Origin: a virus
DNA: 64,000 bases
Direction: 5' to 3' (one strand)
IMG/VR virus record: IMGVR_UViG_3300036799_000109
Location: 5,172 to 69,171 of that record
Part shown: positions 911 to 55,510 of the stretch, piece after piece
Numbering within the stretch: position 1 is the stretch's first letter
Layout: each line of letters starts with the position of its first letter
Notes under the pieces: generated by a model
What the model was told of the DNA's origin: nothing
Databases searched by the model: none
Seen by the model: only the letters and a program-made list of their open reading frames with translations
Position numbers and translations under genes: made by a program

Positions 911-3016
911 TCAGAGGGCCACATAGAGCCCTCGCTCCGCGTTGTCGGCCTGGTCGTCGTTCTTCAACCGGGCCAGGCCGTTGCGGACAAGCTGCGTGGT
1001 CACGGTGGTGTCCCCGGCCGCGCGCAACCCGGCTTCGATCTCGTCCACGCTCAGCGGCCTGTCCGCGGCGGCGAGGATCGCGTGGATACGAAGGTGCCGA
1101 GGCTTGTGTCCTTCGAGCGTCGCCACCGCCGTGCCCACAGGGGCAGCCGTGGCGCCCTCGCCCGCGACGATCCGGCGAACGTCCTCCAGCGCGCTGGCGA
1201 CTGCCGCCTGCACAGTGCCGCCCGCAGCCGATCTCGGCGCGCTGGCCGTAGCCGCTCCCCCGGCAGGCTCGGCGACGAGGAACTCATCCTCAGCGGCCAG
1301 GTAGGAGTAGAACCGGTCGCTCATGTGCGTGTGCCGCTGCTTGTAGCGCGACACCGACGCCAGGATCGCCTGCTCCTCGGCGTCCAGCTCGTGATGGAAC
1401 ATGCGCCGCGCCCAGGACACGTCGCTGACCAGCGGCCCGTCGTCGTACAGCACGTCGCGCTGCGGGTCGTCCTCCTGGATGTACGGGGCCTTCAACCGCA
1501 CCACTGGCCGGCCGTCACCGGGCTTGCACTGGTACTCACCCTTGTGCGTGGGCTGAGTGGCGCGGAAGTCGTGCATCGTGCGCCCGATCTCGTGCCAGTC
1601 CTGCGACATGAACGCGCACACCTCGGCGGCGTTCGCGATGATGTCCCCGCCTGCGGAACCCCAGTTCGGGATCGTCGAGCGCTGGTTGATCAACTTGATG
1701 AAGATCCGGGCGGAACCAGCGCCACGCCTGAGCATCGCGACCAGCTGCGACGCGGTATGAGGGTTGTTCCTGTAGTAGCCCACCCGGTTGTCCTGCAGGG
1801 CGAACGCGGCCTCGTCGATGTACAGGACGATGGTCTTGCGCTTGCGCCGTTCCGCCAGCGGCCGGGACTGCCGCCACCGCGCGAGCGTCATCAGCCCCAC
1901 AAGCATGTCGAGCAGGTCGTCCATGCCGTTGACGATCCAGCCGAAGCGGTGGGGAACGTCCTTGTCCTTGTAGGGCTCCAGCCAGCCAGACATGGTCTCG
2001 TAGACCTTCTCGACCCCGGCGACGAACACCACTGCGTCCCGGCAGCGCAGCAGGTGAGCCCAGTGGTTGTTGATCAGTGACGTCTTCCCGGACAGCGTCT
2101 GGCCGGTGTACTGGCCCATCTGATCGAGCCGGTTGTAGTACTCCTGCAGATCCTCTCCGAAACCGATCAGTGCCGGGGTCTCGACCGACGTCCAGGTCAG
2201 GTCGTCGACGAACGGGAAGACCCGCGCCATCATGTCCTGGAACGTGGCGGTGATCTGGTAAAGGCCGGCGTCCTGGAGCTTGGTGATGGTCACCCAGTTC
2301 GTCGCGATCCGAATGCCCAGGACCTCGCGCAGCGCGATCGCGATGGCCTCCACCGACGCGGGCCCGGTCAGCGACGTCCCAGCCTTCTTGCCGGTGCCCT
2401 TACTCGTCGCGGTGTCATCGGTGAGCGCCTTCCAGCTCGGCACCTGCACCATGACCCGCACCCCGAACGCGGCCGAGCGCTCAATCAGCTGCTCCACCGA
2501 GACGACCGTCAGCCAGGAGTAGTTCGAGCGTTCCAGCGCGAGCTTGACCTTGCGCTCGGCGTTGGCGTCCCCTGGCTGCGGCTCCTTGTCAGCGGTCAGT
2601 TCGCCAGCGGCTGCGACGATGCCCCTGCGGGCCTCGGCGGGGCGAAGCTGCGTGAGCAGGTACTCGTTCCACCTCGCCCCGCCGTACACCGCGAAGCCCA
2701 GCAGGACCAGGGTCAAGGTCAGTCCAGGCCACAGATCCGGTCGCAGCTGTGCCGCGACCGCCCACAGCGAGTACGCGCCCGCCGCGACACCGATCCAGCG
2801 CGTGATCTGCCGCCGCGCGTCGTCCCTGAGCTGCGCGAACATCTGCCCGAAGCGCACGACCTTCGCTGCCGCGACGACGAACGCCGCCGCGGCCGCGACT
2901 GTCACGGGGATGCTGACCAGCAGGGAGACCTGCAGGGCGGCGCTCAGCACAGCGGTAGCCGCCGACAGGAGCGACCCCATCGCCGACCAGAACACCTTGT
3001 AGCTGATCGCCGTCAC
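911..3016 (-). CDS. traB: TraB-like FtsK/SpoIIIE conjugative DNA translocase
   Basis: N-terminal TM helices, Walker A GQTLSGKT, Walker B LYIDEA, INQR motif, C-terminal winged helix (RIHAIL...LSVDEI...VRNGLARL...RGLY); this is the architecture of actinomycete TraB. Confidence 0.8.
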   Translation of the reverse strand: MTAISYKVFWSAMGSLLSAATAVLSAALQVSLLVSIPVTVAAAAAFVVAAAKVVRFGQMFAQLRDDARRQITRWIGVAAGAYSLWAVAAQLRPDLWPGLTLTLVLLGFAVYGGARWNEYLLTQLRPAEARRGIVAAAGELTADKEPQPGDANAERKVKLALERSNYSWLTVVSVEQLIERSAAFGVRVMVQVPSWKALTDDTATSKGTGKKAGTSLTGPASVEAIAIALREVLGIRIATNWVTITKLQDAGLYQITATFQDMMARVFPFVDDLTWTSVETPALIGFGEDLQEYYNRLDQMGQYTGQTLSGKTSLINNHWAHLLRCRDAVVFVAGVEKVYETMSGWLEPYKDKDVPHRFGWIVNGMDDLLDMLVGLMTLARWRQSRPLAERRKRKTIVLYIDEAAFALQDNRVGYYRNNPHTASQLVAMLRRGAGSARIFIKLINQRSTIPNWGSAGGDIIANAAEVCAFMSQDWHEIGRTMHDFRATQPTHKGEYQCKPGDGRPVVRLKAPYIQEDDPQRDVLYDDGPLVSDVSWARRMFHHELDAEEQAILASVSRYKQRHTHMSDRFYSYLAAEDEFLVAEPAGGAATASAPRSAAGGTVQAAVASALEDVRRIVAGEGATAAPVGTAVATLEGHKPRHLRIHAILAAADRPLSVDEIEAGLRAAGDTTVTTQLVRNGLARLKNDDQADNAERGLYVAL

Positions 3017-3061
3017 CGCGTCGTGCCTCCTCTCTCAGGGTGGGTTGTCGGACCGCAAGGG

Positions 3062-4774
3062 TTAATTGGCGAGGACTTCGACCGCCTCGGCGTAGACCTG
3101 GGACTGCGCGTCGTAGCCGTCTCCGTCGTTGAGCACGCGCTCGGCTTCGGCGAGCATCCCCTCACCCGACTCGTGGTCACTCGGGTCGTCGGATTCCAGG
3201 AGCTGCTGTCCTTCGGCCTGCAGACCGGCTGCGATCTCGTAGCGCTCGGCTGCGTTGGCCGCGGCGATGTCTCGCGACGCGCTCAGCGTCGCGATCTTCG
3301 ACGCCTTGGTGGACTCCTGCGGCTGACCTGCATAGCCGCTCTGCACATCGACTGGTGTGGACACTGCGGTACGTCCCTTCGTGCTGAGGTTTCCTCGGGG
3401 GGTTGGTGCTGGTCGTTGGCGCGGCGGCGGGCTGGCGGGCCAGTCATCGCTGTACCGCGGCGACGCGGGCGCGGACGCGGTGGTCGCGCGGCCGGTCATG
3501 GTCGTCGGCCAGCCGTGGTCGTCGACCTCGACAGGACCCGGCGCGGCGTCGGCGTCCTTGCCCTTGCGGCGGGACCAGTCGGGTCGTTTCAGCCGGCGCT
3601 TCTTGCCAGTCGCCGTTGGCGTGGCGCTGGGGAAACCGGCGTCGTCGACGTCGAGATCCGGCAGCTTCTTCTTGTTGTTCTTCTTCCGCCACCACGCCGT
3701 CTTGTCGAGCTTCTCCGCGGTGCCGTTCGGGTCCTTGGTGTCATCGCCTGCGGAGTTGCCGCTGTCGGCGTCCTTGCCGTTCTTGGGCTTCTTCCGCTTC
3801 TTGTCACCGGAGGCGGCGGGGTCACGCTCGCCGCGCTCGGTCCACCAGTCCCACCACTCGCCGATCTGCTTGCGCTTCTTGCCGCGGTTCTTCTGCCGCT
3901 TCTTGGGGCCGCCGCCGTTCGACGACGAGTTGTTGCCGCTACCCGGCCTTCCACTCGAGGGCGAGCTGGAAGAGTTGCGGTTCGGCTTCGACGTCGGGCC
4001 GCCGTTGCCGCGGTTCTTGCGGTTATTGCGCCAGGTCGACCACGCAGACCTGACCCGGCCTGGCTGCTTGCCCCCGGCTGGTGACTTCGCGGTCGACGGC
4101 TTGGTCTGACCGGCTTGCTTGCCACCGGGATTGCGGCCCAGCGCCGCGCGTGCCCGACCTCCCAGTGTCTGCTTGCCGGCCGCCTGCGCGGCCGCGCGAC
4201 GCTGCTGTCGCGTGCTGCCGTCGCGGCCGCCGCGCCTGAACGCATTCCGGAGCCCGCCCTGAGCGCCAGGCGCCCTACCGCGTCCAGCACCACCGCCAGG
4301 ACCGCGACCACGCGGACCGGCGCCACGCCCAGTCCCGCGACCTGCCGAGCCCCGGTTGCGCCAGCGAGACCAGACGCTCTCGCGGGCCTGGCCGTCGCGG
4401 GGGCGCTTACCGACCTTGCCGCTGGTCCGCTTCTTGCCGGCCTCGCCCTTCTTGCCGGCCTTCTCCTCGGCGGCTTTGGCGTCGCGCTTGTTCAGGACGC
4501 GAGCGACGACTCCCATGACCGCGAACGCGAGGCCGCCGAGGAGGACGAGGACCGCCCACGCCGGTCCCGCGACCATCCACACCAGGAGGAACACGAGGAA
4601 TGCGAGCAGACCCAGAATGACCAGGGCGAACCGCACCACGGGCATGCCCGTGGACGGCAGCCCGGTGTCCTTGTCGTCCTTCTTGGCCTTGGACTCGTCA
4701 CCGGGGGCAGGCGGGTCTGGCGCACCGAACGGGTCTGGTGCGCTCTCCTTGGTCTCCTCGGTCTTGGTGCTCAT
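3062..4774 (-). CDS. Membrane protein with long Gly/Arg/Lys-rich disordered region and acidic C-terminal domain (transfer/spread accessory)
   Basis: 570 aa, 2 TM near the N-terminus, co-oriented immediately upstream of traB. Confidence 0.7.
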   Translation of the reverse strand: MSTKTEETKESAPDPFGAPDPPAPGDESKAKKDDKDTGLPSTGMPVVRFALVILGLLAFLVFLLVWMVAGPAWAVLVLLGGLAFAVMGVVARVLNKRDAKAAEEKAGKKGEAGKKRTSGKVGKRPRDGQARESVWSRWRNRGSAGRGTGRGAGPRGRGPGGGAGRGRAPGAQGGLRNAFRRGGRDGSTRQQRRAAAQAAGKQTLGGRARAALGRNPGGKQAGQTKPSTAKSPAGGKQPGRVRSAWSTWRNNRKNRGNGGPTSKPNRNSSSSPSSGRPGSGNNSSSNGGGPKKRQKNRGKKRKQIGEWWDWWTERGERDPAASGDKKRKKPKNGKDADSGNSAGDDTKDPNGTAEKLDKTAWWRKKNNKKKLPDLDVDDAGFPSATPTATGKKRRLKRPDWSRRKGKDADAAPGPVEVDDHGWPTTMTGRATTASAPASPRYSDDWPASPPPRQRPAPTPRGNLSTKGRTAVSTPVDVQSGYAGQPQESTKASKIATLSASRDIAAANAAERYEIAAGLQAEGQQLLESDDPSDHESGEGMLAEAERVLNDGDGYDAQSQVYAEAVEVLAN

Positions 4775-5001
4775 TTCTTCTCCGGTCCCACCCAGTTAGC
4801 GGTGGTGGCCCCGGCGTGGCCGACGATTCCCAGCCCTGCCTTCGCGGCGATGCCGACACTCGTCCCGGCCAGCAGGATGCCGAAGACGATCAGGCAGACA
4901 CCCCACGTCCACCTGACGTGACGGAACAGCGCCCAACCGGAGAAGACCGCGAGTATGAAAGTGAACAGCCCGAACACGCTGACCGTGACAGTCCCGGCCA
5001 T
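4771..5001 (-). CDS. Small 2-TM Spd-like protein
   Basis: 76 aa hydrophobic, GGAGG RBS, ATGA overlap with the next gene. Confidence 0.7.
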   Translation of the reverse strand: MAGTVTVSVFGLFTFILAVFSGWALFRHVRWTWGVCLIVFGILLAGTSVGIAAKAGLGIVGHAGATTANWVGPEKK

Positions 5002-5003
5002 GA

Positions 5004-5564
5004 CTACCTCCTTCCGTGGAGCTCGTGGTCGTTATGGATCCGCTCCAGTGCCAGGAGCAACTCGGTGCCGTCCCACGCGGGGCCAGCGGAATCGGTGACG
5101 AGGACGTCGCGCAGCTCGGCGAGGCGCACAGCCACAGGCACAGGCGGTTCGGGCTCGCCGAGGTCCCCGCGAGGACTCGGCGCCCAGCCCCTGTAGGCGA
5201 GGTGCAGCATCCCCAGCGCCCTGCCGACCGGGCCACGGTGGCAGTCCAGTGAGCGAGGCCCGCGCCATTCGTCGTCGCCCGCGGCGTACGCGACCTCATG
5301 GGCGAGCACACCGGACAGCCGGTAGCCCTCGGCACGGTGCGTGGCGGTGTAGGCCTGCGCTTCCAGGAGGCCGCCGATCGCGTGTAAGACAGCCGCCAGC
5401 TCGCCCCGCTGCGCGCCGTCGAACACCGCACGCCTGTAGTCGTCGAGCCTTCGCCCGGCGATCCCCGTGAGGCTGTGATGGTCGCTGCTGACCCGCATCA
5501 GACGGCGGTACTCGCGCCACCGGGTGAGCAGCGCTAAAGCGGGTGCGGTCGCGGTCACGTGCAT
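5004..5564 (-). CDS. Hypothetical protein of transfer operon
   Basis: Start re-called at MHVTATAP (AGGGG RBS); 186 aa with typical codon bias. Confidence 0.65.
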   Translation of the reverse strand: MHVTATAPALALLTRWREYRRLMRVSSDHHSLTGIAGRRLDDYRRAVFDGAQRGELAAVLHAIGGLLEAQAYTATHRAEGYRLSGVLAHEVAYAAGDDEWRGPRSLDCHRGPVGRALGMLHLAYRGWAPSPRGDLGEPEPPVPVAVRLAELRDVLVTDSAGPAWDGTELLLALERIHNDHELHGRR

Positions 5565-6303: not shown

Positions 6304-6457
6304 AACAGGCCTCCGGGCTACGGAAGAGGTGACCGCCGCCCGGTCCGGGATCACGCAGGGAGGGCGCTGCGGCGAAGAGATGGGGGTCCTCTTCGCCGCG
6401 ATGGACCGGGCGGCGGTGGGTGCTGTTCTCAGCAACCCTGTCGCAGACGGTAGCCGC

Positions 6458-6473
6458 ACCTAGGCGCCTAGGT
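6458..6473. promoter_or_regulatory. Palindromic operator candidate ACCTAGGCGCCTAGGT
   Basis: Perfect 16-bp palindrome between divergent genes; CCTAGG recurs at 7606 and 7622 in the next divergent intergenic region. Confidence 0.6.
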
Positions 6474-6515
6474 CAACAGGGACACAGGCGCCTACCCGGC
6501 GGTACCCTGGGGTGC

Positions 6516-7322
6516 ATGCCACTGGATCTGACGCACTGTCGCGTAAACCACTCCCTCGCCACGCCTCCGCACCAGCAGATCGCCACCTTCCTGCGGGACG
6601 CGATCAACACAGGGGCACTGAGACCAGGGGAGGCGCTCCCCTCGGAGAGTGATCTCATTGAAGCGACCGGTGTAGGACGGGCCGCGGTGCGCCGCGGCAC
6701 CGACCTGCTGGTCCATGAGGAGTTGATCGTCAAGCGCTCCGGTGTGCCCGCGCGAGTCAAGGCGGAGACACCCGTCCGCGACATCAGCGAGGCCAGATAC
6801 CGCGACGAGCTGGCGATCCTGCGCGGCGGCGGGCGGCATCCACTCGCCAGCGCGTTCACCAGTGACTTCGGCGCGGACTGGCAGAGCTACGAGATCGTCC
6901 CCGACTATCAGGAAGACACCGCGACCGCCGAGGAAGCCCAGCACCTGGGAGTCCCCGAGGACAGCCTCGTGCTGCGCCGCTACATGATCAAGCAAATCAG
7001 CGGCCACCCGAAGCAGCTGCAGACCTCGGTGATGGCACTGGACCTGGTGCGAGGCTCAGCGGTCGCCGACCCGACGAATCAGCCCTGGCCTGGCGGCACG
7101 CTGGCAGAGCTGTGGAGCCTCGGCATCGAGGAGTTCGACAAGGTCATCGAGTGGGTGTCCACCCGGACCCCGATCGTCGACGAACGCGTCGACCTGGAGC
7201 TGCCCACAGGAAAGGTCATCGTCATCGACCGGATCTTCGTCGCAGGCGGCAAGCCGGTGGAGTACTCCAAGGTCGTGCTGCCGGCAGACGGCGCGCGCCT
7301 GCGGTTCACGACCGCGCTCTAG
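6516..7322 (+). CDS. GntR/HutC-family repressor with UTRA domain (TraR/KorSA-like)
   Basis: PPHQQIATFLRDAINTGALRPGEALPSESDL...GVGRAAVRRG wHTH plus UTRA (EDTATAEEAQHLG, GKPVEYS); divergent from the tra operon; TACCCT -10 just before the ATG suggests leaderless mRNA. Confidence 0.9.
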   Translation: MPLDLTHCRVNHSLATPPHQQIATFLRDAINTGALRPGEALPSESDLIEATGVGRAAVRRGTDLLVHEELIVKRSGVPARVKAETPVRDISEARYRDELAILRGGGRHPLASAFTSDFGADWQSYEIVPDYQEDTATAEEAQHLGVPEDSLVLRRYMIKQISGHPKQLQTSVMALDLVRGSAVADPTNQPWPGGTLAELWSLGIEEFDKVIEWVSTRTPIVDERVDLELPTGKVIVIDRIFVAGGKPVEYSKVVLPADGARLRFTTAL

Positions 7323-7749: not shown

Positions 7750-8100
7750 ATGTCCGATCAACCCGACCAGCCACTGCGCAGGAACCTGCTGCCCCCCGAG
7801 AACGAGCCCGACGAGGACGCGCAGCAGATCCTCACCCACATGCGTGCCTACGCTGCGAACCGCGGCCTCACTCCACTGCAGCGGGCCCTCGGCTTCCGTC
7901 ACTTCGAGCACTACGCCGACACCCAGCTGACCGATTTCGTGTACTACGCCCGCCACCCCGAGCGGGTTATGGACACAGGTGACGAGACGGCCCCCGTCAT
8001 CTGGGACACCATCGCGGACACGCTGACCATGACCTATGGCGGCGTCCGCTCCCGCAACCGGCGCGCGATCGCGCGGATCGAAGGCGGTGGTCGCACATGA
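7750..8100 (+). CDS. Small HTH-like protein
   Basis: AGGAG RBS; VYYAR...IWDTIADTLTMTYGGVRSR HTH-like; ATGA overlap with the spd-like gene. Confidence 0.65.
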   Translation: MSDQPDQPLRRNLLPPENEPDEDAQQILTHMRAYAANRGLTPLQRALGFRHFEHYADTQLTDFVYYARHPERVMDTGDETAPVIWDTIADTLTMTYGGVRSRNRRAIARIEGGGRT

Positions 8101-9434
8101 GTCACCACGTGACCACCACCAGGCCGCCTGGCGTGCTCGGCCGGATGCGCCAGGCCGTCGCCAGCGACGCTCCCGCGAAGGACACCGACGAGCGCACTGA
8201 GCGCACGCCGGCAGACGTCCTCGCCGAGATCACCTGGTACGAGAAGATCCGCATGTTCGCGCGCTACGGCGGCATCATCATCGGGGTACTCGCGCTGATC
8301 TCGACCACCGTGAACGTGCAGGTGTTCGCCAGCGCCGGCCACCAGCCGTCCATGCGTACCGACCTCGCCAGCATGCAGGACACCCTGATGTGGCTGGTGT
8401 CCTGGCTGCTCGACCCGATGGCCTCCCTCGGGCTGGTCATCGCGATCGTCCTGGAGTCCGCGCTCGCCCGCAAAGGCCGCCACGAACCCTCCCTGATCGC
8501 CGCGGAGATATTCGCCGGGGGCATGACCTGGGTCATGAACGTGTGGCCCGCTGTGGCGCACCCCGGCCCCAACGGCGCTGTCGCAGGAGTCTTCACGCAC
8601 TCCCTCGCGCCAGGTCTGGTGCTGCTCCTGGGCATCGCAGGCCCGCGGGCACTCCGGGGATTCTCCGCGATCATCGACGAGTTGAAGGTCGAACTGGCGG
8701 CGCTGAACCAGGAGATCAAGGACGCCGCGCAGGCCCTGGTCGACCAGGACCTCGACGAACGCAAGGCTGCGCTCGCGCAGGAGGCCGCTGACCGCCAGGC
8801 CGACCGTGATGCCGAGACGGAACGACTGAACGCCAAGGCCAGAGCCGCCGAGTCCGAGATCAAGCTGGTGCAGGTGCGCAACGCTCCCGCGGTCGCCAAG
8901 CTCGCGATGAGCCTGCGACTCGGCGTGCTCCTCGACAACCTCGTCCACAGCGTCAGCCGCCAGGCCGCTGCCGCCGAGCAGCGCGCCGAGGCTGAGCGCA
9001 AGGCCGCGGCCGCGGCCTCGCGCCGCGCCACCCGCGAGCAGACCCAGCCCGCCAGCAGTGGCGGCGCGCACCGCCCGCAGCGCGACCTCGGCACCGTGCC
9101 CACCGAGTCCAAGTCGCAGCGCACTCGCGCGATCCTCCTCGGACTGGTCGCACACGACATGATCGCCGAGGGGGAAGAGTGGCCGAACAGCTCCCGCCTC
9201 GGCGGCATGCTGGTGGGGGAGAACGCTTCCCCCGATGACCTGCGGGCAGCGGGGGAATCCGCGAAGAAGGTCCTGGGAGAACTCCGCAGGCCTGGGCACA
9301 TTCCCCCCGATGGTCACAGAGGCCCGTGGATTCCCGCCGACCGGACTGCCTTCCAGTCGCTCTACCAGCCACTTCAGCTCCTCGCGGCCCGTGAGCTGCA
9401 GCAGCAGCCCAGGGGGAACCGCATCGCCAGCTGA
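8097..9434 (+). CDS. SpdB-like multi-TM plasmid spread protein
   Basis: 4 TM segments (LLDPMASLGLV, TWVMNVW, HSLAPGLV) followed by a long coiled coil, as in actinomycete Spd/DUF2637-like proteins. Confidence 0.7.
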   Translation: MSHHVTTTRPPGVLGRMRQAVASDAPAKDTDERTERTPADVLAEITWYEKIRMFARYGGIIIGVLALISTTVNVQVFASAGHQPSMRTDLASMQDTLMWLVSWLLDPMASLGLVIAIVLESALARKGRHEPSLIAAEIFAGGMTWVMNVWPAVAHPGPNGAVAGVFTHSLAPGLVLLLGIAGPRALRGFSAIIDELKVELAALNQEIKDAAQALVDQDLDERKAALAQEAADRQADRDAETERLNAKARAAESEIKLVQVRNAPAVAKLAMSLRLGVLLDNLVHSVSRQAAAAEQRAEAERKAAAAASRRATREQTQPASSGGAHRPQRDLGTVPTESKSQRTRAILLGLVAHDMIAEGEEWPNSSRLGGMLVGENASPDDLRAAGESAKKVLGELRRPGHIPPDGHRGPWIPADRTAFQSLYQPLQLLAARELQQQPRGNRIAS

Positions 9435-9453: not shown

Positions 9454-9500
9454 AACGGCCCCCCGCTTCCCCTCACGAGGAGGGAAACCGGGGGGCCGTT
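9454..9500. terminator. Hairpin terminator
   Basis: AACGGCCCCCCG ... CGGGGGGCCGTT stem after the spd-like gene. Confidence 0.7.
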
Positions 9501-9619
9501 GTGTGCGACGGTCAGGGGGAGAGAACCAGGTCTCTCCCGGTAGTTGACGATCTCGGATAGGGCTATTCGGGTAGCGTGCGCGCGATCACCACCACCCAGG
9601 ACATCACCAGGAGACACCC

Positions 9620-9979
9620 GTGGCCGAGCCCACCGTCGCGCACGTCCGAGCCCTGCTATCCAGGCCCGGTCAGGACCTCTCCCTGCAGGACATTCCACGC
9701 GAGTGGCTGCAGTGCCGCGGCTACGGGCACAGCTGGGATTACGGGCCTGCTCCGACGCAGTTCGTCAGCGCGACGGTGTGGGCCACCCGGGGCCGATGCC
9801 GGTCGTGCACCTCGAAGTCGTACCGCGAGATGCAGGCCGACTCCTGCCGGCCGTTGAAGCCGCAGGCCGACTACACCTACGTCGACGGCTATCTCCTGGC
9901 GCTGCACCTGGTGACCAAGTGGGAGGCCCGTCGCGAGATCGCCCGCCGCGACATGCTCGCTGTCCGGGGTGTCGCCTGA
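9620..9979 (+). CDS. Hypothetical Cys/His (Zn-binding?) protein
   Basis: AGGAG RBS; CRGYGH and CRSC motifs. Confidence 0.65.
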   Translation: MAEPTVAHVRALLSRPGQDLSLQDIPREWLQCRGYGHSWDYGPAPTQFVSATVWATRGRCRSCTSKSYREMQADSCRPLKPQADYTYVDGYLLALHLVTKWEARREIARRDMLAVRGVA

Positions 9980-9980
9980 G

Positions 9981-10127
9981 TCACGAGGTGGCCCACAGCG
10001 CCCCGTACAGGCTGGTGATCACGAGCAGCACGCTCCCGACGACCGCGAGCCAGGCCAGCGCGTCGACGAGGAACCCGACGAGGATCAGCAGCAGCCACAG
10101 GACCATCAGCCACAGGGTCAGTCGCAC
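9981..10127 (-). CDS. Small 2-TM membrane protein (48 aa)
   Basis: MRLTLWLMVLWLLLILVGFLVDALAWLAVVGSVLLVITSLYGALWATS, GGAG RBS; below the ORF-track cutoff. Confidence 0.6.
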   Translation of the reverse strand: MRLTLWLMVLWLLLILVGFLVDALAWLAVVGSVLLVITSLYGALWATS

Positions 10128-10148
10128 GTCAACCGCTCCAAAAGTTGA

Positions 10149-10670
10149 TCATGGTGTGATCGCCTCAACGATCCGGTACAGGCCGTAGAACGGGGCCGTA
10201 ACGACCAGCGGCACCGTGACGATAGGTATGAGAGCGAGGCTCACGCCGAGCACAGCCGGCGCGTCTTTCCACCATCCGCGCCACCCGTTTCGTCTGGTGA
10301 GCAGCGACCCCCACCGTACCCCGGCCCACATCGCCCAGCGCTTGACCGTGGGCACACCCACCGTGCCGAGGGCCTGCCTGAGCAGCCCATCGGCCTCCCG
10401 GTACTCCATGAGCCCCGCGGGGATGGCGTAGCGCCAACACCAGTCGTGCAGCACCGCCGCGGGCGCCCCGGTGACGACGTCGACGAACCAGCGCACCAGC
10501 AGCGGCGCGCTGGCGAAGTCCGTCCGCGACCCCACCGGCACCCGAAGCGTCTGCCACGTGCCCTGGTACACCAGCTCTGCCGTGGTCTCCCACGTCGTGG
10601 CGTCCACCTGGGAGACGGCCAGCGGGGCGGACGACGCGAACCCCCGTCCGTCGTGCTCGACGAGCCTCAT
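10149..10670 (-). CDS. DUF1353-family protein
   Basis: VPVGSRTDFASAP, AAVLHDW, EADGLL, MWAGVRWG motifs. Confidence 0.85.
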   Translation of the reverse strand: MRLVEHDGRGFASSAPLAVSQVDATTWETTAELVYQGTWQTLRVPVGSRTDFASAPLLVRWFVDVVTGAPAAVLHDWCWRYAIPAGLMEYREADGLLRQALGTVGVPTVKRWAMWAGVRWGSLLTRRNGWRGWWKDAPAVLGVSLALIPIVTVPLVVTAPFYGLYRIVEAITP

Positions 10671-11650
10671 CCGAGTCCTTTGTCGTGCACCCAGGAACGC
10701 AGGCCCGTCGCCAGCACGTCGACGTCATGGGTGTGCGGGTGCCTCAGGAAGTGCTTCGCCACTGCCGCCAGGCGGACATCAGCCGCGTCCACCACAGGAT
10801 CGTCAGGGACCGGATCTGGTTCAGGATCCGGCGCGGGAGGCTCGGGCGCGGGGTTGACCAGGGGAAACGGGCGGCCGGTCAGAGCCGTGAACGCCGCTCC
10901 CAGGGCGGCGAGATCCACCCCCTGCAGGAAGGCCACCGACCCGAGATGCTCAGGCCAGATGACCACCCAGGCCTCCTGCACCTGCGACCGCCAGAACTCG
11001 TCCGTCAGGCCGATGCTCTCGCCCCAGGTGATCACCGACAGGTCGGCGTGATCAGGCTGCTCATCCGAGGTGTAGTACCCGGCGAGGACCGCGTGTCCGC
11101 CCCAGTCGTCTGAGCCGCGCTCGTAGTCCCAGGGCCCGCCCTGATCGGTCTGCGTCTGCTGCGCGACCTGCAGATCCACCCCGAGGTGCAGCGACCCGAA
11201 GATGGCGACCGCGGCGCGCACCTCGTCGAGGTTGGTCACGTCGACCTGCGCGTATGCGAGGCAGCGCGTGCCACCGAGCCCGTTGTGTTCGATCTCCGAG
11301 AGCATGTCCGCGAGGACGACCCCGTTGTCCTCGGTGGGGAAGCCTGGGTTGCCTGCGCGCCGGTACAGGTCGAGCACGGCGTCGAGATCCGGCTCGACCT
11401 CCTTGCCGCTGAGGTACCGGCCGATCAGTTCCCGGTCGTGCCAGGCCATCGCAGGCCCGCAGTCGCCGTACTGGTCGTTGGCGAGCATCCCCCAGGCGGT
11501 GACCTTCGAGAAATGGTCGACGCTCACCGGGTGCGCAGGGACTGCCCCGGTGAGGACGTCCGCGAGCTTCAGTGTGCGCCGCTGCGGATCGTGCGGCCGG
11601 CGCCCCAGCCTGCGACCAGGCACCACCTGGTGCTCGACGTGCGTGGACAT
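10667..11650 (-). CDS. Papain-fold cysteine peptidase (putative second lysin)
   Basis: WGMLANDQYGDC...GGHAV...VITWG Cys/His dyad; located in the lysis cassette. Confidence 0.7.
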   Translation of the reverse strand: MSTHVEHQVVPGRRLGRRPHDPQRRTLKLADVLTGAVPAHPVSVDHFSKVTAWGMLANDQYGDCGPAMAWHDRELIGRYLSGKEVEPDLDAVLDLYRRAGNPGFPTEDNGVVLADMLSEIEHNGLGGTRCLAYAQVDVTNLDEVRAAVAIFGSLHLGVDLQVAQQTQTDQGGPWDYERGSDDWGGHAVLAGYYTSDEQPDHADLSVITWGESIGLTDEFWRSQVQEAWVVIWPEHLGSVAFLQGVDLAALGAAFTALTGRPFPLVNPAPEPPAPDPEPDPVPDDPVVDAADVRLAAVAKHFLRHPHTHDVDVLATGLRSWVHDKGLG

Positions 11651-11689
11651 TCGACTCCTTTCCGAGTCGCTGAAGGGGGGTGGAGACGG

Positions 11690-12730
11690 TCAGGCGTGAC
11701 CGATGCCGTCGAGGTGCGCGGCGAATGAGAACCCAGGTGCCATGTCCTCGACGCCGACCTGCACCGCGACCGTGCCCTGCTGCAGCTCGAACATTCCGAA
11801 CTGGCCGTGTGCGACACGAAACGGCGGGTGCGCGTAGGAGGTGCCATCGGCGCGGATCTCGACGAGCCACCACACGTTCGCGGTGGCCTTGGTGTCACGG
11901 ACGCACGCCGCGGACCACTGGAGCCACGCCCTGGAGCCCGCGGGCATGACCAGTGATCTGCCCAGGGGGTCGATGGTCAGCTGGTCGGTCAGGTCGCCCC
12001 GGCCGGTCGCGGTGCGCGGGTGGGTCAGGTGGATCTCGCGCATCTTCCTGAGACCTCTCCTGGTGGCGGTCGGGGTGGGGGTGGGTGCGGGTGCAGCGGG
12101 GTTGATCAGGCCCGCGAGTTGCTCGTAGGTGCCGAGGTAGGCGTTGACGTCGACAGGGGAGTAGCCCGCGACGCGCCCGTGCTCGGAGAACTGCAGGACC
12201 GCCACGGGCAGCCCGCCGTAGGCGGTCCACCGGGACGGGGTGACGTTCTGGTACAGCTGCGCGGGCGACCCGGTGGTGCTCGACGGGTAGCTCGACGCCC
12301 ACAGCATCGGCAGCCCTCGCAGGTCAGGGCTGCCCATCGCCTGCCAGTACCACCGGGGCAGGTAGATCAACGGGATGCGCGCGCCGCGCGCGAGGCATCG
12401 CTGATGGAACGCCCGGATACCGGCGATGGTCAGCGTCGGGCGGCTCTGCGAGTCGATCGCCTCGGCGTCGATCACCCCTGGCACACCGGCCTGCGCGAGC
12501 TGGCCGGTGAACACCTGCGCCTGCTGGTCCTCAGAACCCGGTCGCAGGTAGTGGTAGCCCACGCTGATCAACCCGGCCTGCTTGCCGCGGCGCAGCCAGT
12601 TCTGCGAGTCGAATACCGTTGTGCCCTCGCTGACCTTGCAGGACAGGAAGTCGACCCCGGCCCCGCGTAGCGCCCCGATGTCCAGACCGGCCTGGTAGAC
12701 CGGGTGGACGTCGACACCCCAGATCGGCAT
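11690..12730 (-). CDS. Endolysin, GH25 muramidase with C-terminal domain
   Basis: WGVDV, KVSEG, GYHY, IDAE, LWASSY, LQFS, VDVN GH25 motifs; PTPTPT linker; start re-called at MPIWG. Confidence 0.9.
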   Translation of the reverse strand: MPIWGVDVHPVYQAGLDIGALRGAGVDFLSCKVSEGTTVFDSQNWLRRGKQAGLISVGYHYLRPGSEDQQAQVFTGQLAQAGVPGVIDAEAIDSQSRPTLTIAGIRAFHQRCLARGARIPLIYLPRWYWQAMGSPDLRGLPMLWASSYPSSTTGSPAQLYQNVTPSRWTAYGGLPVAVLQFSEHGRVAGYSPVDVNAYLGTYEQLAGLINPAAPAPTPTPTATRRGLRKMREIHLTHPRTATGRGDLTDQLTIDPLGRSLVMPAGSRAWLQWSAACVRDTKATANVWWLVEIRADGTSYAHPPFRVAHGQFGMFELQQGTVAVQVGVEDMAPGFSFAAHLDGIGHA

Positions 12731-13101
12731 CAGGTCTCCTTCGCGTCGCCCGTCCGGTAGGTGCCGTGCCCCGAGGCGACCAGCGCGTCCGACAGTTCGA
12801 CCCCGTCGACGGCGATGGACGCCAGCCAGCGCGCGAACGACCGGCCGTGCACCACGACCGTGATCTCCGTGGCGCCCAGCAGCTGCTCGGCCATCCACTC
12901 CGTCGCCTCCGGCCCGCCCGGTGCGGTGAGCTCCGGTGCGCCGGCCCCGGAGAGTCGCAGCCACGGCCAGATACCGGTGTCGCACCCCGCGTCGAGCAGC
13001 AGCTTCACCGTGTCGCCGTCGTGCACGTCGAGCACCACCGGCCTGCCGGTGTGATCGGTTTTGACGGGGTAGGACCAGGTTTTGCCGTCACTGCCGCTCA
13101 T
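12730..13101 (-). CDS. Thermonuclease (SNase-like)
   Basis: VHDGDTV, RLSGAGAPE, SFARWLA, LVASGHG. Confidence 0.8.
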   Translation of the reverse strand: MSGSDGKTWSYPVKTDHTGRPVVLDVHDGDTVKLLLDAGCDTGIWPWLRLSGAGAPELTAPGGPEATEWMAEQLLGATEITVVVHGRSFARWLASIAVDGVELSDALVASGHGTYRTGDAKET

Positions 13102-13547
13102 GCCGGTCTCCCACAGGTCGAGGGCAGGGGGTTGTCCACGCGCACCGCGCCCGCGGCCCGGGATGCCCGCAGGTAGGCCTGCGCACGCGAGAGGTAGGTG
13201 TTGAGCGCGGCGATCCCTTGCTGGCGGGTCTGCTGGGTCTGCTCACCGGGTTTCTTCGGGGTGATAGCGAGCAACGTCAGCCACATCTGGATCTCTGCCT
13301 GAACGCGCTCCTGGGTGCGGTCGCGTTCCTGATCGGCGCTCTGCCCGCGCCGCGCCAGTGACTCGGAGATGGCGAGGTTGTAGCTGGTCTGGCAGGCGAT
13401 CGCCTCGTCGAGGCGGCGGGTCTGCTGGTTGTAGCGCACCCCGGCCACGAGGTTGACGACGATGGACATCAGCGCCAGGACGAGCACGACGACGCCGAGG
13501 ACACGCATCCACCTGGGCGCCCGGGTTGACGGCTTCTCGGTGCTCAC
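13098..13547 (-). CDS. Membrane-anchored coiled-coil protein (lysis accessory)
   Basis: GTG start VSTEK overlapping the upstream stop; single TM then coiled coil. Confidence 0.7.
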   Translation of the reverse strand: MSTEKPSTRAPRWMRVLGVVVLVLALMSIVVNLVAGVRYNQQTRRLDEAIACQTSYNLAISESLARRGQSADQERDRTQERVQAEIQMWLTLLAITPKKPGEQTQQTRQQGIAALNTYLSRAQAYLRASRAAGAVRVDNPLPSTCGRPA

Positions 13548-13660
13548 TGGTCCCCCACTCGTTCGATGACCCACAAGGCGGCTCTGACCAGCACGAATCC
13601 CGCCGACCCGAAGGCCGCGGAGTAGGCGATGATCTGGGCGACGAAGCTGGCGACGATCAC
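13544..13660 (-). CDS. Small TM protein (38 aa), lysis cassette
   Basis: MIVASFVAQIIAYSAAFGSAGFVLVRAALWVIERVGDQ with GTGA overlaps at both ends. Confidence 0.6.
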   Translation of the reverse strand: MIVASFVAQIIAYSAAFGSAGFVLVRAALWVIERVGDQ

Positions 13661-13920
13661 GAGGAATCACCTCCGTCACCGTTGTTCCGCCGTTTCAGCG
13701 CCGCGGCGATCGACCCGCCTGCGATGGCCGCGAACGTCCCGTTGACCTGTAGGAACAGGCTGTTGGTGGCCGCGTCGGCGCGGACTACGAGCAGCACGAT
13801 GGACACGACGCAGGTGATCGCCCATACCGCTGTCACGGCGATCACGACAGCGGTCACCAGCTTGTTGCTGATCACCCCGGCTCCCTCGGTTCCTGATGCG
13901 GTGGTCGCCTCGGGGGTCAT
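13657..13920 (-). CDS. Holin-like 2-TM protein
   Basis: Two TM segments and charged C-terminus (LKRRNNGDGGDSS), upstream of the lysins. Confidence 0.6.
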   Translation of the reverse strand: MTPEATTASGTEGAGVISNKLVTAVVIAVTAVWAITCVVSIVLLVVRADAATNSLFLQVNGTFAAIAGGSIAAALKRRNNGDGGDSS

Positions 13921-15923: not shown

Positions 15924-15925
15924 GA

Positions 15926-41310: not shown

Positions 41311-41561
41311 AGGGAAGGTCCCTTCAACGCGGGGCTGATCGCGCCCCGGCGCCCTGGATTGATCAAGTTCCGTGGTGGGCGTCCGGGGCTGCGATCAGCC
41401 ACTGGGGGTGGGGGTTCGGGCCTCAAATACGAGCACCCCGTGGCCTTTGGGGGCCGCGGGGTGCTGGTAGGACCATCGTGCGCATACGCACACGTCTGGC
41501 AGGCGCAGACTGTTGCACGTCACAAGAATGATTCGCAACCATGACGCGCGGTATGTGAACT

Positions 41562-43187
41562 TCACACCTGCGCCCAGGTGCCGTCTTCCTGCTGAGTCAG
41601 CTCCCGTATCCCGTGCCTGTGCAGGTCAGACGCTTTCCATCCGTAGCCTCCTATGTCTGTGAGCGTCTTGTCCGAATCGGCCGGTTCGTCGTCGAACACC
41701 TGCTGTGGGGCGGTCCCTACCGCCATAAGCAGGTATCGCAACGCGTCGTACCAGTGATCAGGGGCATCGGTGTTGACGTCCTCAATTCGATTCGGGTCAC
41801 GCGGCAGCTCGCCGACCGTGTTGAGCAGGTCCCGGCAGCCGTCGAACACGTGCAGCATCGGGCACAGCGCCCAGCCCAGGGACCGGTGATACACGCACGC
41901 CGGCCCTTCGGAGAGGTAACTGTGCACGCGGGCCTTCCCGGTGATCCGGTCGTTATCCGCTTTGCGAAGCGCCAGGCCTTCAAGCGCAATCTGAGTAGCG
42001 GGCGGCAACGCTTCGCCGTGCTTCCCCCACATCGCCGGGTCGGCTGCCACCGGGCGCGGCACCTGCCCGTCCTCCGCGCACACACCGAGGATCCGTTTCG
42101 CCTGCAACTTCTCCGGGGTCTGCACCATGCTCAGCTCCCGGTACACCCACATGCGCCCGTCGTTGTCCTTGGCCGCGGCGAGGAACACACTCGGCGCGGC
42201 CCACCCGTAGTCCAGGCCGCCGTAGCGCATCCAGGACTGCGGCACCGGGAACCTCGGCACCCTGATCCGTTCCAGCCGCCAGTCCGGGAACGCCTGATCA
42301 GGCATCACCGACCAGTCACCATCGGCGATCATCCGGCGCAGCTCCGGGTCCTCGATCCCGGCCAGGGTCGCCCCGTAGTCCCCGATGAACGGGTTGTCCG
42401 ACACCTTCGCCGGTATGAAGATCACCCGGCGGCCGGCGCCGTCGACCAGCTCCTTCTCCCCGTAGTCCGTGGGCACCACGTACCGGCGCTTCACATTCCC
42501 GTGGCCGATGTTGCCGGGGTTGCTCGCCGACCGGATCCCGAGGCACGGCACACCGGGCACACCGGAGCGAACACGCGTGTACAGCAGGTCCACCACGTCC
42601 GGGCTCATCGTCGTTCGCTCGTCCAGCAGCAGCAGATTGATCTCCGCAGACAGCAGGGCCGAGGCCTCCTGCACGTTCTTCGCATGCCCGAAGGTGATGA
42701 TCGACCCCCCGGGGAAATGCAACTCGTGCTTCCCGCCGTGCCAGTGCGTGCCGAACACCTCGGCGTACCGGTACCGGGCCAGCATCCTGATCACCGACTG
42801 GTTCAGCTCAGGGAACGACCGGCGAAACCAGAACGTCTGCAAGCCGGGGAACCTCACCGAGGCTTGAATCGCGAACATCAACAGCGAGTGCGACTTCCCG
42901 CCGCCGCCTGCCCCGCCGTAGAAGATGTCCATGTTCTCCCAGGGCAGATCCAGGAACCTCTCCTGCGGACACTGCCCGCACCGCGGCGGGATCTCCTCAC
43001 CGGCTTCCGCGGCCGCGTGCTGCACCCGGCAGTTCGGCTCGAACCCGAGCTTCCCGAACACGTCCACGCGCCGGTTCGCCTCAGCCTGCCGGCGCTCCTT
43101 CTCCTCCTGCAGCCGGCGCAACTCATGCAACTTCCGGAGCCGCTCATCGCGCAGAGTCCTGGACGGCCCTGTACCGGGCGAAACCAC
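41562..43187 (-). CDS. terL: Terminase large subunit
   Basis: Walker A YGGAGGGGKS, LLLDE, ASNPG, nuclease GLDYG, ADPA, DHWYDALRY. Confidence 0.95.
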   Translation of the reverse strand: MVSPGTGPSRTLRDERLRKLHELRRLQEEKERRQAEANRRVDVFGKLGFEPNCRVQHAAAEAGEEIPPRCGQCPQERFLDLPWENMDIFYGGAGGGGKSHSLLMFAIQASVRFPGLQTFWFRRSFPELNQSVIRMLARYRYAEVFGTHWHGGKHELHFPGGSIITFGHAKNVQEASALLSAEINLLLLDERTTMSPDVVDLLYTRVRSGVPGVPCLGIRSASNPGNIGHGNVKRRYVVPTDYGEKELVDGAGRRVIFIPAKVSDNPFIGDYGATLAGIEDPELRRMIADGDWSVMPDQAFPDWRLERIRVPRFPVPQSWMRYGGLDYGWAAPSVFLAAAKDNDGRMWVYRELSMVQTPEKLQAKRILGVCAEDGQVPRPVAADPAMWGKHGEALPPATQIALEGLALRKADNDRITGKARVHSYLSEGPACVYHRSLGWALCPMLHVFDGCRDLLNTVGELPRDPNRIEDVNTDAPDHWYDALRYLLMAVGTAPQQVFDDEPADSDKTLTDIGGYGWKASDLHRHGIRELTQQEDGTWAQV

Positions 43188-44479: not shown

Positions 44480-44720
44480 GGCACGGCTGGCCCGGCCACG
44501 CGGTTGGCCCGGCCGTGGTTGGCCGTGGTTGGCCGGTGTTGGCCGGTCGGTGGCCGGGTGGCTGTGGCTCCAGGGACTCCAGGGTCCGTGGTCCGTGGTT
44601 GGCCGGCTCCGTGGTCCGGGTGGTTCCAGGGAGCTCCACGGTCCCCGGCCACTCCAGGGACGCCGAGCACAAAACCGTCCACCCGGCCACGCTCCAGGGC
44701 GGGACCGGGTGGACGGGTGG
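44480..44720. repeat. Non-coding array of TGGCC/CCGG and CTCCAGGG repeats
   Basis: Several TTGGCC units; CTCCAGGG at 44568, 44577, 44652, 44692. Confidence 0.75.
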
Positions 44721-46942: not shown

Positions 46943-47009
46943 CACCCCCGGCCCCGGCCGGAGAGGGAACCTCGCCCAACGAGAGGGCCAGGTTCCCTCT
47001 CGCGCGTCC

Positions 47010-47265
47010 CGACCACCTGGCCGGTCCAACCGTCCCGGCTGGATCACGGCGGCCCGGCCGGTCCAGCCACGGTCTGGTCAGACCAGGGCCGGCATGGTCC
47101 ACGGTCCGGATGGTCCAGCCAGCCCAGGGCCCCAGGGAGCTCCAGGGACTCCAGGGCCAAACGGCTCCGTGGCTGGTCCAACCGCTCCAGGGACTCCAGG
47201 GCTCCAGGGACTCCAGGGTCAACCCGAGCCCAGCTCCAGGGACCCCGACGACTCCAGGGAACCAA
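47010..47265. repeat. Array of co-oriented CTCCAGGG(A) repeats
   Basis: CTCCAGGG at 47140, 47149, 47185, 47194, 47202, 47211, 47234, 47252 plus CCCAGGG variants. Confidence 0.85.
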
Positions 47266-54431: not shown

Positions 54432-54445
54432 ACACCCGTGGGGAG

Positions 54446-55510
54446 CTACAAAACACCAGTCCAGGCGTTGTGCTCCATGTCGTCCACTGCCCTGTTGTAC
54501 ACATTCAGCCGGTTCGACCTCGGCGACAACCGGCCCATGCGGAGCAGCACCGAGTGAGGCACCTTGTTCCGGCAGCCGATCGTGAACGCGGCCGCGCGAG
54601 CCGTGTGCCCCGACACCTGATCCGCATGCTCCAGGCCTGCCTGCTGCGCCCGGTACCGGAACACCCTGCCCACCCATTCACCGGAGAGCCGTTCACCGGG
54701 CCGGTCGTACGGCACCGCCCTGATCAGCGGCCCGCCGATCACGCCGTGCAAAGCGAGCATCGCCTTCCAGGCCCGCAGCAGCGCCGGCAGATCCGTCTCG
54801 TCGAACGAATCCGACCTGATGCGCACCTCCTCGCCGCGCGCCGCCTGGTCGGTCTTCGAGGACCCGACGTACACCATGATCCCGCCGTCGATGATCTCCA
54901 CGTCGTCCCAGTTCAGCGCCACGACCTCGGACTCGCGCCCGAACATCGCCAGGGCCAGGACCATGAGCAGCCAGTCCCGCAGCCCGAGCAGCGTCGTCGG
55001 ATCGCAGGTGGCGATCATCAGGTGGAGTTCTTCGATGGTGATCGGCGCGGCGGCCTTCTGCCGGCCTTTGCCGCGTTTCGCCCGGTCCCGGCTGTGCTCC
55101 TTCAGCAGTGCGAGCGCCAGCTCTGTGTCCGGTTGTCGTTTGTGCCCCGACCAGCGGTGCACCGTGCGGATGGCGTAGATCGTCTGCTGGATCGTGGACA
55201 CCGCGAAGTCCTCGTCGGCGAGATGGGCGACGTACTCGGCGAGGGTGTACTCGGTCGCGGGCAGCGCCACCCGCTTCTCCTCCAGGCACCAGCCGACGAA
55301 ACCGCCCGGTGGGTCCGGGGTGATCCACTGGTCGACGTCGGCGTCTTTGCTGCCCGTTCTGGTGCCGTCCCAGGCGCGGCGGTAGGCGCGCAGTGTGTTA
55401 CGCGACGTCGAGGCCCGTAGACGGCGCACGGTGTCCTCGGACAGTGCGAAGTCCGCCGCGGTGTACTCAGGTGCGACCTCGGCGGCCTGGATCCAGGGCT
55501 GAATGCTCAC
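54446..55510 (-). CDS. Cre-like tyrosine recombinase
   Basis: NTLRAY SAM-like domain, GLRDW..GRESEV (R), SKTDQ (K), SGHTAR (HxxR), MGR, VYNR (Y); no arm-binding N-terminal domain. Confidence 0.9.
   Translation of the reverse strand: MSIQPWIQAAEVAPEYTAADFALSEDTVRRLRASTSRNTLRAYRRAWDGTRTGSKDADVDQWITPDPPGGFVGWCLEEKRVALPATEYTLAEYVAHLADEDFAVSTIQQTIYAIRTVHRWSGHKRQPDTELALALLKEHSRDRAKRGKGRQKAAAPITIEELHLMIATCDPTTLLGLRDWLLMVLALAMFGRESEVVALNWDDVEIIDGGIMVYVGSSKTDQAARGEEVRIRSDSFDETDLPALLRAWKAMLALHGVIGGPLIRAVPYDRPGERLSGEWVGRVFRYRAQQAGLEHADQVSGHTARAAAFTIGCRNKVPHSVLLRMGRLSPRSNRLNVYNRAVDDMEHNAWTGVL

Follow-up and report, generated by a model that had tools for sequence, protein, structure and literature searches.

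A myovirus-type soil element that joins a TraB-like DNA transfer module to a contractile-tail gene set

Introduction

Phage-plasmids are usually viewed as moving by virions only. For the Streptomyces plasmid-phages pZL12 and pFP4, excerpts of two papers describe conjugation as episomes and also the formation of infective particles (PMC3583192, PMC4170104). In passages from further papers, pSLE1 is called syntenic with pZL12 (PMC4487206), PhiNon1 of Nonomuraea is said to be "reminiscent of pZL12" (PMC5431353), and SpdB2 homologues are placed on some actinophages (PMC4447253). Such excerpts also state that TraB proteins bind clt sites with direct 8-bp repeats (PMC4447253) and that the clt of pIJ101 contains an inverted repeat and short direct repeats (PMC3583192). 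Here, we analyze a 64,000-nt stretch of viral DNA (referred to here as the window), which covers positions 5172 to 69171, i.e., 92%, of the 69,171-bp IMG/VR virus record IMGVR_UViG_3300036799_000109 and in which the gene for a TraB-like double-stranded DNA translocase stands next to a phage operon of the contractile-tail type.

An original prediction for this DNA had proposed that one element may spread both as virions and by mycelial conjugation, a lifestyle that it took to be undescribed for actinophages. The reading as a single element stood, in that circular relatives and a bridging contig indicate that the tra module is integral to the phage; the novelty did not, since pZL12 and pFP4 were already in print as precedents. 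On balance, we favor the view that the window covers the larger part of a temperate element of the myovirus type whose host is a soil actinomycete not yet in culture, and that this element carries an integral DNA transfer module of the actinomycete conjugation type, whose regulation, cis site, maintenance as a plasmid, and transfer we propose by analogy. This view is carried by the gene content, the fold of the translocase, a chain of homology, physical linkage, and recurrence in circular phage genomes and plasmids. The nearest gene relatives come from Amycolatopsis and Micromonospora, and the host is probably not Streptomyces.

Results

The translocase gene of the module encodes a 701-aa protein (P0001) with Walker A (GQTLSGKT) and Walker B (VLYIDEA) motifs and hydrophobic N-terminal helices, as judged from translation and hydropathy. 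Searched alone, P0001 gave no match in the PDB with phmmer, and a word-indexed homologue search returned just P0001 itself. As no direct library match was available, its identity as a TraB protein was thus reached via a family profile alone. Searching 1.84 billion representatives with phmmer, we collected a family of 164 proteins at E ≤ 1e-3, 87 of them at E ≤ 1e-30, and G310, K311, and E402 proved invariant in a 58-sequence alignment of this family. Against the PDB, the family profile matched EssC/FtsK-SpoIIIE (8e-19), FtsK (8e-14), and the conjugation coupling protein TcpA (1e-6), with a weak C-terminal match to the winged helix of RPA32 (3e-3). When family members were scanned singly, the Pfam model FtsK_SpoIIIE was matched by 11 of 58, and some members matched AbiEi_4, PadR, or HTH_20.

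An AlphaFold 2 (AF2) model of P0001, built from the 58-sequence alignment (pLDDT of 88.6), shows four long N-terminal helices at residues 6-123, a motor at about 150-560, and a winged helix of the order H-H-H-E-E at 640-700. Foldseek searches with this model retrieved the FtsK motor first (E = 1.8e-13, ∼455 columns, TM score of 0.62-0.65 by target), then TcpA, and then EssC/EccC. P0001 thus shows the features of the FtsK/SpoIIIE-HerA superfamily, namely, a RecA-like core that bears both Walker motifs and the FtsK motor fold, and in the model it has the domain order of TraB, with N-terminal membrane association followed by the translocase and a C-terminal winged helix. The motifs, the model, and the Foldseek matches bear out the predicted reading of this gene as a TraB-like FtsK protein with transmembrane, ATPase, and winged-helix parts.

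Comparison of the family profile with proteins of described plasmids by hhalign (percentages as given by that program) connected the family to actinomycete transfer proteins. The matches comprised a 797-aa protein encoded before the terminase on a 99-kb circular plasmid of Streptomyces atratus (99.9%, E = 1.9e-34, 498 columns, winged helix included), the FtsK/SpoIIIE-domain protein Tra of pSQ10 (99.4%, E = 2.7e-21, 333 columns, pre-ATPase domain included), pZL12.71c of pZL12/phage ZL12 (GQ919031; 99.0%, E = 2.5e-18, 495 columns, winged helix included), and Tra/KilA of pIJ101 (96.7%, E = 3.5e-10, 204 columns, ATPase core only). The pZL12.71c gene is the sole FtsK-like gene annotated in GQ919031 and is likewise unmatched by Pfam's FtsK model. 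We take the pSQ10 gene to be the experimentally tested tra gene, and the path from P0001 to tested tra genes runs in part through such assignments. Judged by architecture and by this chain of profile matches, the membership of P0001 in the actinomycete Tra/TraB group appears well supported.

The tra-side genes run into a contiguous minus-strand operon for myophage morphogenesis and lysis, which extends over ∼10.1 to 43.1 kb according to Pfam and PHROGs matches (Table 1). These matches agree with the intact lysis/tail/head/terminase operon described from the sequence beforehand, and the predicted gene set of a contractile-tailed phage looks whole. To call the myophage "complete" was nevertheless too strong, since the record is linear, with a CheckV completeness of ∼70%, and since a small terminase (TerS; PHROGs search of the window, cutoff of 0.01), Rep, and ParAB were not recognized. 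The record has ∼69% G+C, contains no N, and shows no terminal direct repeat. Because of this high G+C content, genes were called from third-position G+C (GC3), and gene coordinates are by default those of these calls. The window yielded no tRNA in a tRNA search and no Rfam matches, and no DNA-level match to any phage record was found.

The large terminase (TerL), portal, and major capsid protein share 41 to 56% identity with their homologues on pAmyja1 of Amycolatopsis japonica, and for the head genes together with the tape measure the range is 40 to 56%. Used as a protein query, TerL found no match in 22 related records, which suggests that these relatives share the tra module and not the packaging genes. 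Within the head region, the 448-aa protein carries an N-terminal domain resembling 2H phosphoesterases or "2'-5' RNA ligases"; the PHROGs labels for its family include both RNA ligase and head maturation protease, and a homologous domain is also found in the virus record G019 and on the S. atratus plasmid.

We then asked whether the module and the phage are physically one. Window DNA is contained in two soil metagenome runs, X1, the possible source run, and X2, which comes from a different study and sample. One X2 contig (2,288 nt) spans 9644-11931 with one difference and thereby connects the last tra-side gene with the lysis genes, while in X1 a 10,029-nt contig spans 1-7726 and another contig covers 7713-9480. 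No sign of a chimera was seen in the contigs of either run. Short-sided Logan "joints" were disregarded, since their sides measured ≤27 nt and such joints in metagenomes often reflect other organisms or repeats. The two flanks of the tra module share no att-like direct repeat (their longest word in common, of 16 nt, falls within two coding regions), and neither an integrase nor a tRNA was found at the joint between the tra and lysis genes, as had been noted from the sequence before. A separate actinomycete integrative and conjugative element (AICE), the case that would have undone the prediction, was therefore rejected, given also that the contig from the second sample bridges the joint; the data support a single element made of the tra-type module and the phage. 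It seems scarcely credible that the tra genes of a neighboring AICE or plasmid were misjoined to a prophage by an assembly or boundary artifact. Such an error is suggested by the nature of the record, a metagenome contig without end repeats, and by the listed Logan pieces, which leave 9576-9643 uncovered in X2 and 9481-12257 in X1 and so prove nothing either way. The X2 contig nevertheless crosses the joint itself, the X1 contig holds the translocase side together, and the same juxtaposition recurs in circular records.

A search for related loci with a 12-sequence alignment of the TraB-like family identified 9 loci in isolate genomes or metagenome-assembled genomes (MAGs), namely, in Amycolatopsis, Micromonospora, Glycomyces, Salinispora, and one MAG, as well as 14 loci in IMG/VR. 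Three virus records (G012, G019, and G022) end in exact repeats, which measure 91 nt in one and 127 nt in the other two. The search proposed beforehand, for other genomes with traB next to sheath and terL genes, is answered, for instance, by the circular record G019 (128 kb), which encodes YdjM, an 801-aa TraB-like protein, a 446-aa protein, and a GntR/UTRA regulator together with portal, putatively intein-bearing terminase, capsid, sheath, baseplate J, and GH25-LysM lysin. The record G022 (58 kb) combines TraB-like and GntR/UTRA genes with terminase, SPP1-type portal, tape measure, and GH25 genes. A sheath model matched 2 of the 14 IMG/VR records, indicating that the module travels with both tail types. 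As side observations on G019, its large terminase (L034:12892-15261) is 789 aa long and contains an intein splicing domain match (E = 2e-7) below the Pfam cutoff, and a DpdA homologue (L032:1052-1954; E = 8e-77) suggests 7-deazaguanine DNA modification.

Among plasmids, tblastn with P0001 matched just two records, pAmyja1 and pGBA129-24a, both of which are circular and carry the homologue beside tail and lysis genes. The 99-kb S. atratus plasmid, which we read as pZL12-like, contains ParA, a type III polyketide synthase-like gene, and phage genes. A different setting was seen in L006, a 25-kb Micromonospora contig with a TraB-like gene (∼29% identity, E of ∼1e-76), ParA, GntR/UTRA, a DUF2637-like gene, and Prim-Pol; the 21 kb of it that were examined showed no phage genes, which points to a plasmid- or AICE-like context. 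Two plasmid-like Micromonospora contigs encode Pycsar effector (PycTM) domain proteins (L005:14589-15320 and L006:13646-14191), in each case downstream of the TraB-like gene at a distance of a few genes, and L003, L004, and L005 have GGDEF protein genes in this vicinity.

These neighborhoods bear on the idea that the FtsK-like pump serves prophage inheritance, that is, that it clears or pumps extrachromosomal DNA across septa during compartmentalization and sporulation in the manner of FtsK/SpoIIIE, replacing or supplementing ParAB. The fold, that of an FtsK motor followed by a winged helix of the gamma type, would suit such a task. Moreover, neither integrase nor ParA or ParB was recognized (at 1e-4) among the 82 ORFs of G019 and the 53 ORFs of G022 of at least 110 aa, nor was ParA or ParB in the window, and G022 has a separate FtsK_gamma protein. 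We nevertheless regard an inheritance role as unlikely: the closest characterized relatives by profile are plasmid Tra proteins, L006 encodes its own ParA beside a member of the TraB-like subfamily, pZL12 has ParAB in addition to its FtsK-like gene, and the divergent GntR gene corresponds to the kil-kor layout of transfer genes as outlined in an excerpt of PMC4447253.

The remaining genes of the module were examined with this transfer reading in mind. The predicted GntR/UTRA gene, of the HutC type and divergent from the traB operon, was confirmed by Pfam matches to both domains. It is a candidate analogue of TraR/KorA and shares 28% identity over 223 aa with the GntR protein of the S. atratus plasmid. 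Such a gene adjoins TraB-like genes in G019, G022, L006, pAmyja1, and pZL12 as well as in the window, so that a kil-kor-type pairing of a GntR regulator with tra is present in the gene layout, the corresponding regulation being a prediction from sequence.

Directly upstream of traB, a 570-aa protein is encoded that has two membrane helices, ∼350 low-complexity residues rich in K/R/G/S/N, and an acidic helical C terminus. It is the positional counterpart of the large proteins encoded upstream of TraB in relatives and might bind DNA at the membrane. Pfam, BLAST, hhalign, and a homologue search revealed no relatives of it; the ESM Atlas contains its sequence letter for letter, with other matches there falling under the tool's bar. 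A plus-strand ORF at 3357/3480-4109 was rejected as a gene, being the mirror frame of this minus-strand gene. The traB-side operon begins with two small ORFs (186 and 88 aa), for which Pfam and PHROGs gave no family matches.

On the other side of traB, the gene for the 185-aa membrane protein is followed, beyond the window, by that for a membrane protein of the YdjM family (4128-5045 of the full record, G000). By BLAST clustering, YdjM is found near TraB-like genes in seven related loci (L001, L009, L014, L015, L019, L022, and L023); three members are confirmed by Pfam (L001, L009, and L015), and the YdjM match of G019 is the L022 member. A family member on pGBA129-24a is annotated as a metal-dependent hydrolase, and YdjM stands as an unexplained conserved partner of the TraB-like module.

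The GntR operon encodes a 445-aa protein with three to four membrane helices and a coiled-coil tail, which is a possible analogue of SpdB2/DUF2637 proteins. The Spd-like membrane genes of the original prediction found no sequence support here: homologues of SpdA, SpdB, or KilB could not be demonstrated in the window by Pfam, hhalign, or BLAST, and homologue searches assigned the 445-aa protein to no family. A feature search of the ESM Atlas gave a lead from it to SpdB and DUF2637 clusters at 0.84 to 0.85, a value below the threshold set by that tool. SpdB models seem to be missing from the local copy of Pfam, since pIJ101 SpdB itself matched 0 families in it. Among the relatives, DUF2637 occurs in the TraB neighborhood above the cutoff in L012, L017, and the S. 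atratus plasmid and below it in L009, L023, and pAmyja1.

A further candidate part of the module, absent from the original prediction, lies in the 146-nt gap directly after the traB stop codon and is an AT-rich inverted repeat. Folded as DNA, this region reaches a z score of -3.2, with 0 of 200 shuffles folding as well, and just two stretches of the 69 kb, this one included, fall below 40% G+C (40-nt windows). The other such stretch (61157-61209) is the gap between the small minus-strand genes 60781-61173 and 61222-61713. Relatives carry inverted repeats at the corresponding place, the arms of which consist of different short tandem repeats: (CAAAC)n in L014, L021, and L023, and in L018, where the copy lies ∼1 kb downstream, past the next gene; (CA)n in L009; (CTCA)n in L022 and L013; 29-nt arms of the (CTCAC)n type in L024; and CTCATAAC/GTTATGAG in the Micromonospora group. 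Palindromes are found in L015 and L019. In an ungapped scan, 11 of 23 loci had their best repeat (arm of at least 8 nt) starting ≤33 nt past the traB stop, with spacers of 39 to 73 nt, and 6 of the 23 loci exceeded the 95th percentile of 208 control windows. A clear post-traB repeat was not seen in the remaining scanned loci, which include pAmyja1 and the S. atratus plasmid.

Since the clt of pIJ101 likewise combines an inverted repeat with short direct repeats, we propose this element, by analogy, as a candidate clt site, next to its possible reading as a terminator. Past the traB stop and ahead of the hairpin, CGTCACGG occurs in two direct copies spaced 10 nt apart, but this word is not overrepresented in the window (12 found versus 9.7 expected), and the two copies therefore carry little weight.

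The tra module could also be an inactive or co-opted remnant of a plasmid or AICE fusion, serving, e.g., superinfection exclusion or DNA entry and exit, in an otherwise ordinary temperate phage that possibly integrates. Two of the relatives are indeed classed as proviruses, the 570-, 445-, and 185-aa proteins could not be related to any known Spd protein, and the neighbors of TraB vary widely across relatives. We consider a remnant improbable, however, because the ORF is intact, with Walker A/B residues that are invariant in the 58 aligned members and with 87 representatives at E ≤ 1e-30, and because elements of both the sipho and the myo type have kept the position, the orientation, the GntR partner, and the post-gene repeat, a pattern that speaks for a functional module under selection.

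The sole tyrosine recombinase of the window is 354 aa long. Its match to the Pfam model Phage_integrase (25.8 bits) is slightly below the cutoff, and it aligns with XerD models from residue 81, with an N terminus of the XerD type. A PDB search gave 17 matches at E ≤ 1, every one of them to Cre or the Cre-derived Tre (best E = 2.4e-8), the Cre match extending over residues 71-228, so that the predicted likeness to Cre was upheld; no separate arm-binding domain was recognized. Candidate R, K, HxxR, and Y catalytic residues were spotted by eye in the unaligned translation, and the protein fits a simple tyrosine recombinase of the Cre/Xer type, with core-binding and catalytic domains only. It found no tblastn match in any relative and thus is not part of the shared backbone; it may act in dimer resolution or integration.

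Elsewhere in the window, CTCCAGGGACTCCAGG occurs in four exact copies (44568-44583, 47140-47155, 47185-47200, and 47202-47217) and in nine matches at ≤3 mismatches, compared with 1.35 expected, and several GGTCCA words are located in a 276-nt gap between divergent genes (46943-47218). The CTCCAGGGACTCCAGG cluster resembles an operator or iteron cluster and could mark an immunity region or origin.

Table 1. Features of the window discussed in the text
Feature	Position (nt)	Strand	Basis
185-aa membrane protein downstream of traB	207-764	minus	Hydropathy
AT-rich inverted repeat, arms (CAAA)n/(TTTG)n, GC-rich spacer of ∼49 nt	785-878	minus	Sequence reading, DNA fold
Two direct copies of CGTCACGG	891-908	minus	Sequence reading
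TraB-like double-stranded DNA translocase (P0001): N-terminal helices, FtsK alpha/beta motor, C-terminal winged helix	911-3016	minus	Motifs, family profile, AF2, Foldseek
570-aa protein directly upstream of traB	3062-4774	minus	GC3 frame analysis, translation
Two small ORFs, 186 and 88 aa	5004-6303	minus	GC3 calls
GntR/UTRA (HutC-type) regulator	6420-7322	plus	Pfam GntR 4e-12, UTRA 3e-8
445-aa membrane protein in GntR operon	8097-9434	plus	Hydropathy
Last tra-side gene before lysis genes	9620-9979		GC3 calls
Lysis end: small membrane proteins, DUF1353, 327-aa protein, nuclease-like protein, holin-like membrane proteins	9981-13875	minus	Pfam, PHROGs, hydropathy
GH25 endolysin	11690-12730	minus	Pfam, PHROGs
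Contractile tail region: GDSL esterase/fiber, fiber, P2-I-like, J-like, and gp25-like baseplate proteins, LysM hub, tail completion	13917-31105	minus	Pfam, PHROGs
Tape measure, SLT domain	22657-26823	minus	Pfam, PHROGs
Tube	27692-28111	minus	Pfam, PHROGs
Sheath	28190-29665	minus	Pfam, PHROGs
Head and packaging region, including adaptor and 556-aa protein	31338-43130	minus	Pfam, PHROGs
Major capsid protein	32291-33661	minus	Pfam, PHROGs
2H-phosphoesterase/protease-like head-region protein, 448 aa	35686-37032	minus	Pfam, PHROGs
Portal	38552-40030	minus	Pfam, PHROGs
Large terminase (TerL)	41562-43130	minus	Pfam, PHROGs
Cre-like tyrosine recombinase	54446-55510	minus	Pfam, PDB matches

Discussion

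The arrangement of the module suggests how an element of this kind could work. A GntR/UTRA gene diverges from an operon made up of the small proteins, the 570-aa protein, the TraB-like translocase, the repeat hairpin, the 185-aa protein, and YdjM. In the prophage state, which is probably that of a plasmid, the GntR protein would hold this operon down, by analogy with TraB of pSVH1 and pIJ101 and with the tra locus of pZL12. Once expressed, membrane-anchored TraB hexamers may recognize a cis site through their C-terminal winged helix, the post-traB repeat hairpin being the candidate for this site, and may then pump the double-stranded element into neighboring hyphae and across septa. The element would thus spread as virions and as naked DNA. 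The plasmid state itself is proposed by analogy: the morphogenesis set expected of a phage-plasmid is present and the isolate relatives are circular plasmids, but Rep and ParAB were not found on the 69 kb.

Several observations weigh against this interpretation. P0001 alone has no Pfam, PHROGs, or NCBIfam match, and its similarity to pIJ101 Tra is not stronger than that to FtsK or EssC. That pZL12.71c is the major tra gene of pZL12 is something we infer from its being the sole annotated FtsK-like gene in the record. The 445-aa protein has no Pfam match, reaches just 0.3% in hhalign against the DUF2637 neighbors of relatives, and gave an empty BLAST result against pIJ101 SpdB. The inverted repeat is not built of the 8-bp direct repeats known for clt, and a terminator-pattern scan matches 819-799 inside it, where a small GC hairpin is followed by a TTTG run, so that a terminator or attenuator role stays a live alternative. 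Family scans recognized neither Rep nor ParAB on the 69-kb record, which is ∼70% complete, and the two proviruses among the relatives belong on the same side.

What the analysis adds is the breadth of the TraB-like family, its invisibility to standard domain models, and, as a new feature, the conserved repeat hairpin after traB. The TraB-type module is apparently not a Streptomyces curiosity, since a divergent subfamily occurs in soil viruses of both tail types and in plasmids of Pseudonocardiaceae. We tentatively extend this to a possible widespread and mostly unrecognized set of actinomycete phage-plasmids with both tail types, in which a Pfam-invisible TraB and a hairpin docking site that varies by lineage, as (CAAA)n, (CA)n, or (CTCA)n, might pump double-stranded DNA between hyphae and thereby give the element two horizontal routes. 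Such a set would explain why surveys based on relaxases and type IV secretion systems miss these elements. The conserved cis element offers a testable candidate recognition site, and dual transmission in mycelial bacteria becomes testable in cultured strains, for example, with pAmyja1 in Amycolatopsis japonica.

Among described systems, the window resembles pZL12 in that a tailed-phage operon abuts a divergent GntR gene, membrane proteins, and a Pfam-invisible FtsK-like protein, and in that both have a tyrosine recombinase. The two differ in that sequence identity is in the profile range only and in that ParAB is annotated in pZL12 and was not found on the 69-kb record; the sheath and baseplate of the window, which mark it as myo-type, may be a further difference. 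Reportedly, pZL12 also has repA. The pZL12 element, or phage ZL12, was reportedly described by Zhong et al. in 2010 (J Bacteriol 192:3747) and pFP4 by Chen et al. in 2012 (Plasmid 68:170).

The circular pAmyja1 (NZ_CP008954, 92.5 kb), of which the literature searched holds no mention, has a gene order like that of the window, with GntR, a DUF2637-like protein (417 aa, below threshold), a TraB-like protein, GH25 lysin, tail, head, TerL, and a tyrosine recombinase. In contrast to the window, it has an annotated tail tube with no sheath seen, and it carries ParB-domain genes. The TraB identity of the window to pAmyja1 and to the circular Actinoalloteichus plasmid pGBA129-24a (NZ_CP016078) is ∼28% over one third of the protein.

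The window shares with P1 a Cre-like recombinase and possibly the plasmid prophage. It differs from P1 in that no lox site, Rep, or Par was identified in the window and in that the recombinase is not common to its relatives, while P1 is without a conjugation-type pump.

Like the TraB systems of pSVH1, pIJ101, and AICEs, the window encodes an FtsK-type motor that is anchored in the membrane and ends in a winged helix, a GntR protein whose gene is divergent, and membrane proteins that share an operon; the repeat that adjoins the translocase gene is a candidate counterpart of their cis element. With pIJ101 Tra, on the other hand, just the ATPase core aligns, and the candidate site has 4-nt tandem repeats arranged in inverted orientation, unlike the 8-bp direct repeats of Streptomyces clt. 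The carrier here, moreover, is a phage and not a small plasmid as for the Streptomyces Tra proteins. We thus see the element as a divergent, myo-type addition to a known class of actinomycete plasmid-phages with a TraB-type module, an interpretation that is reasonable and not in itself new.

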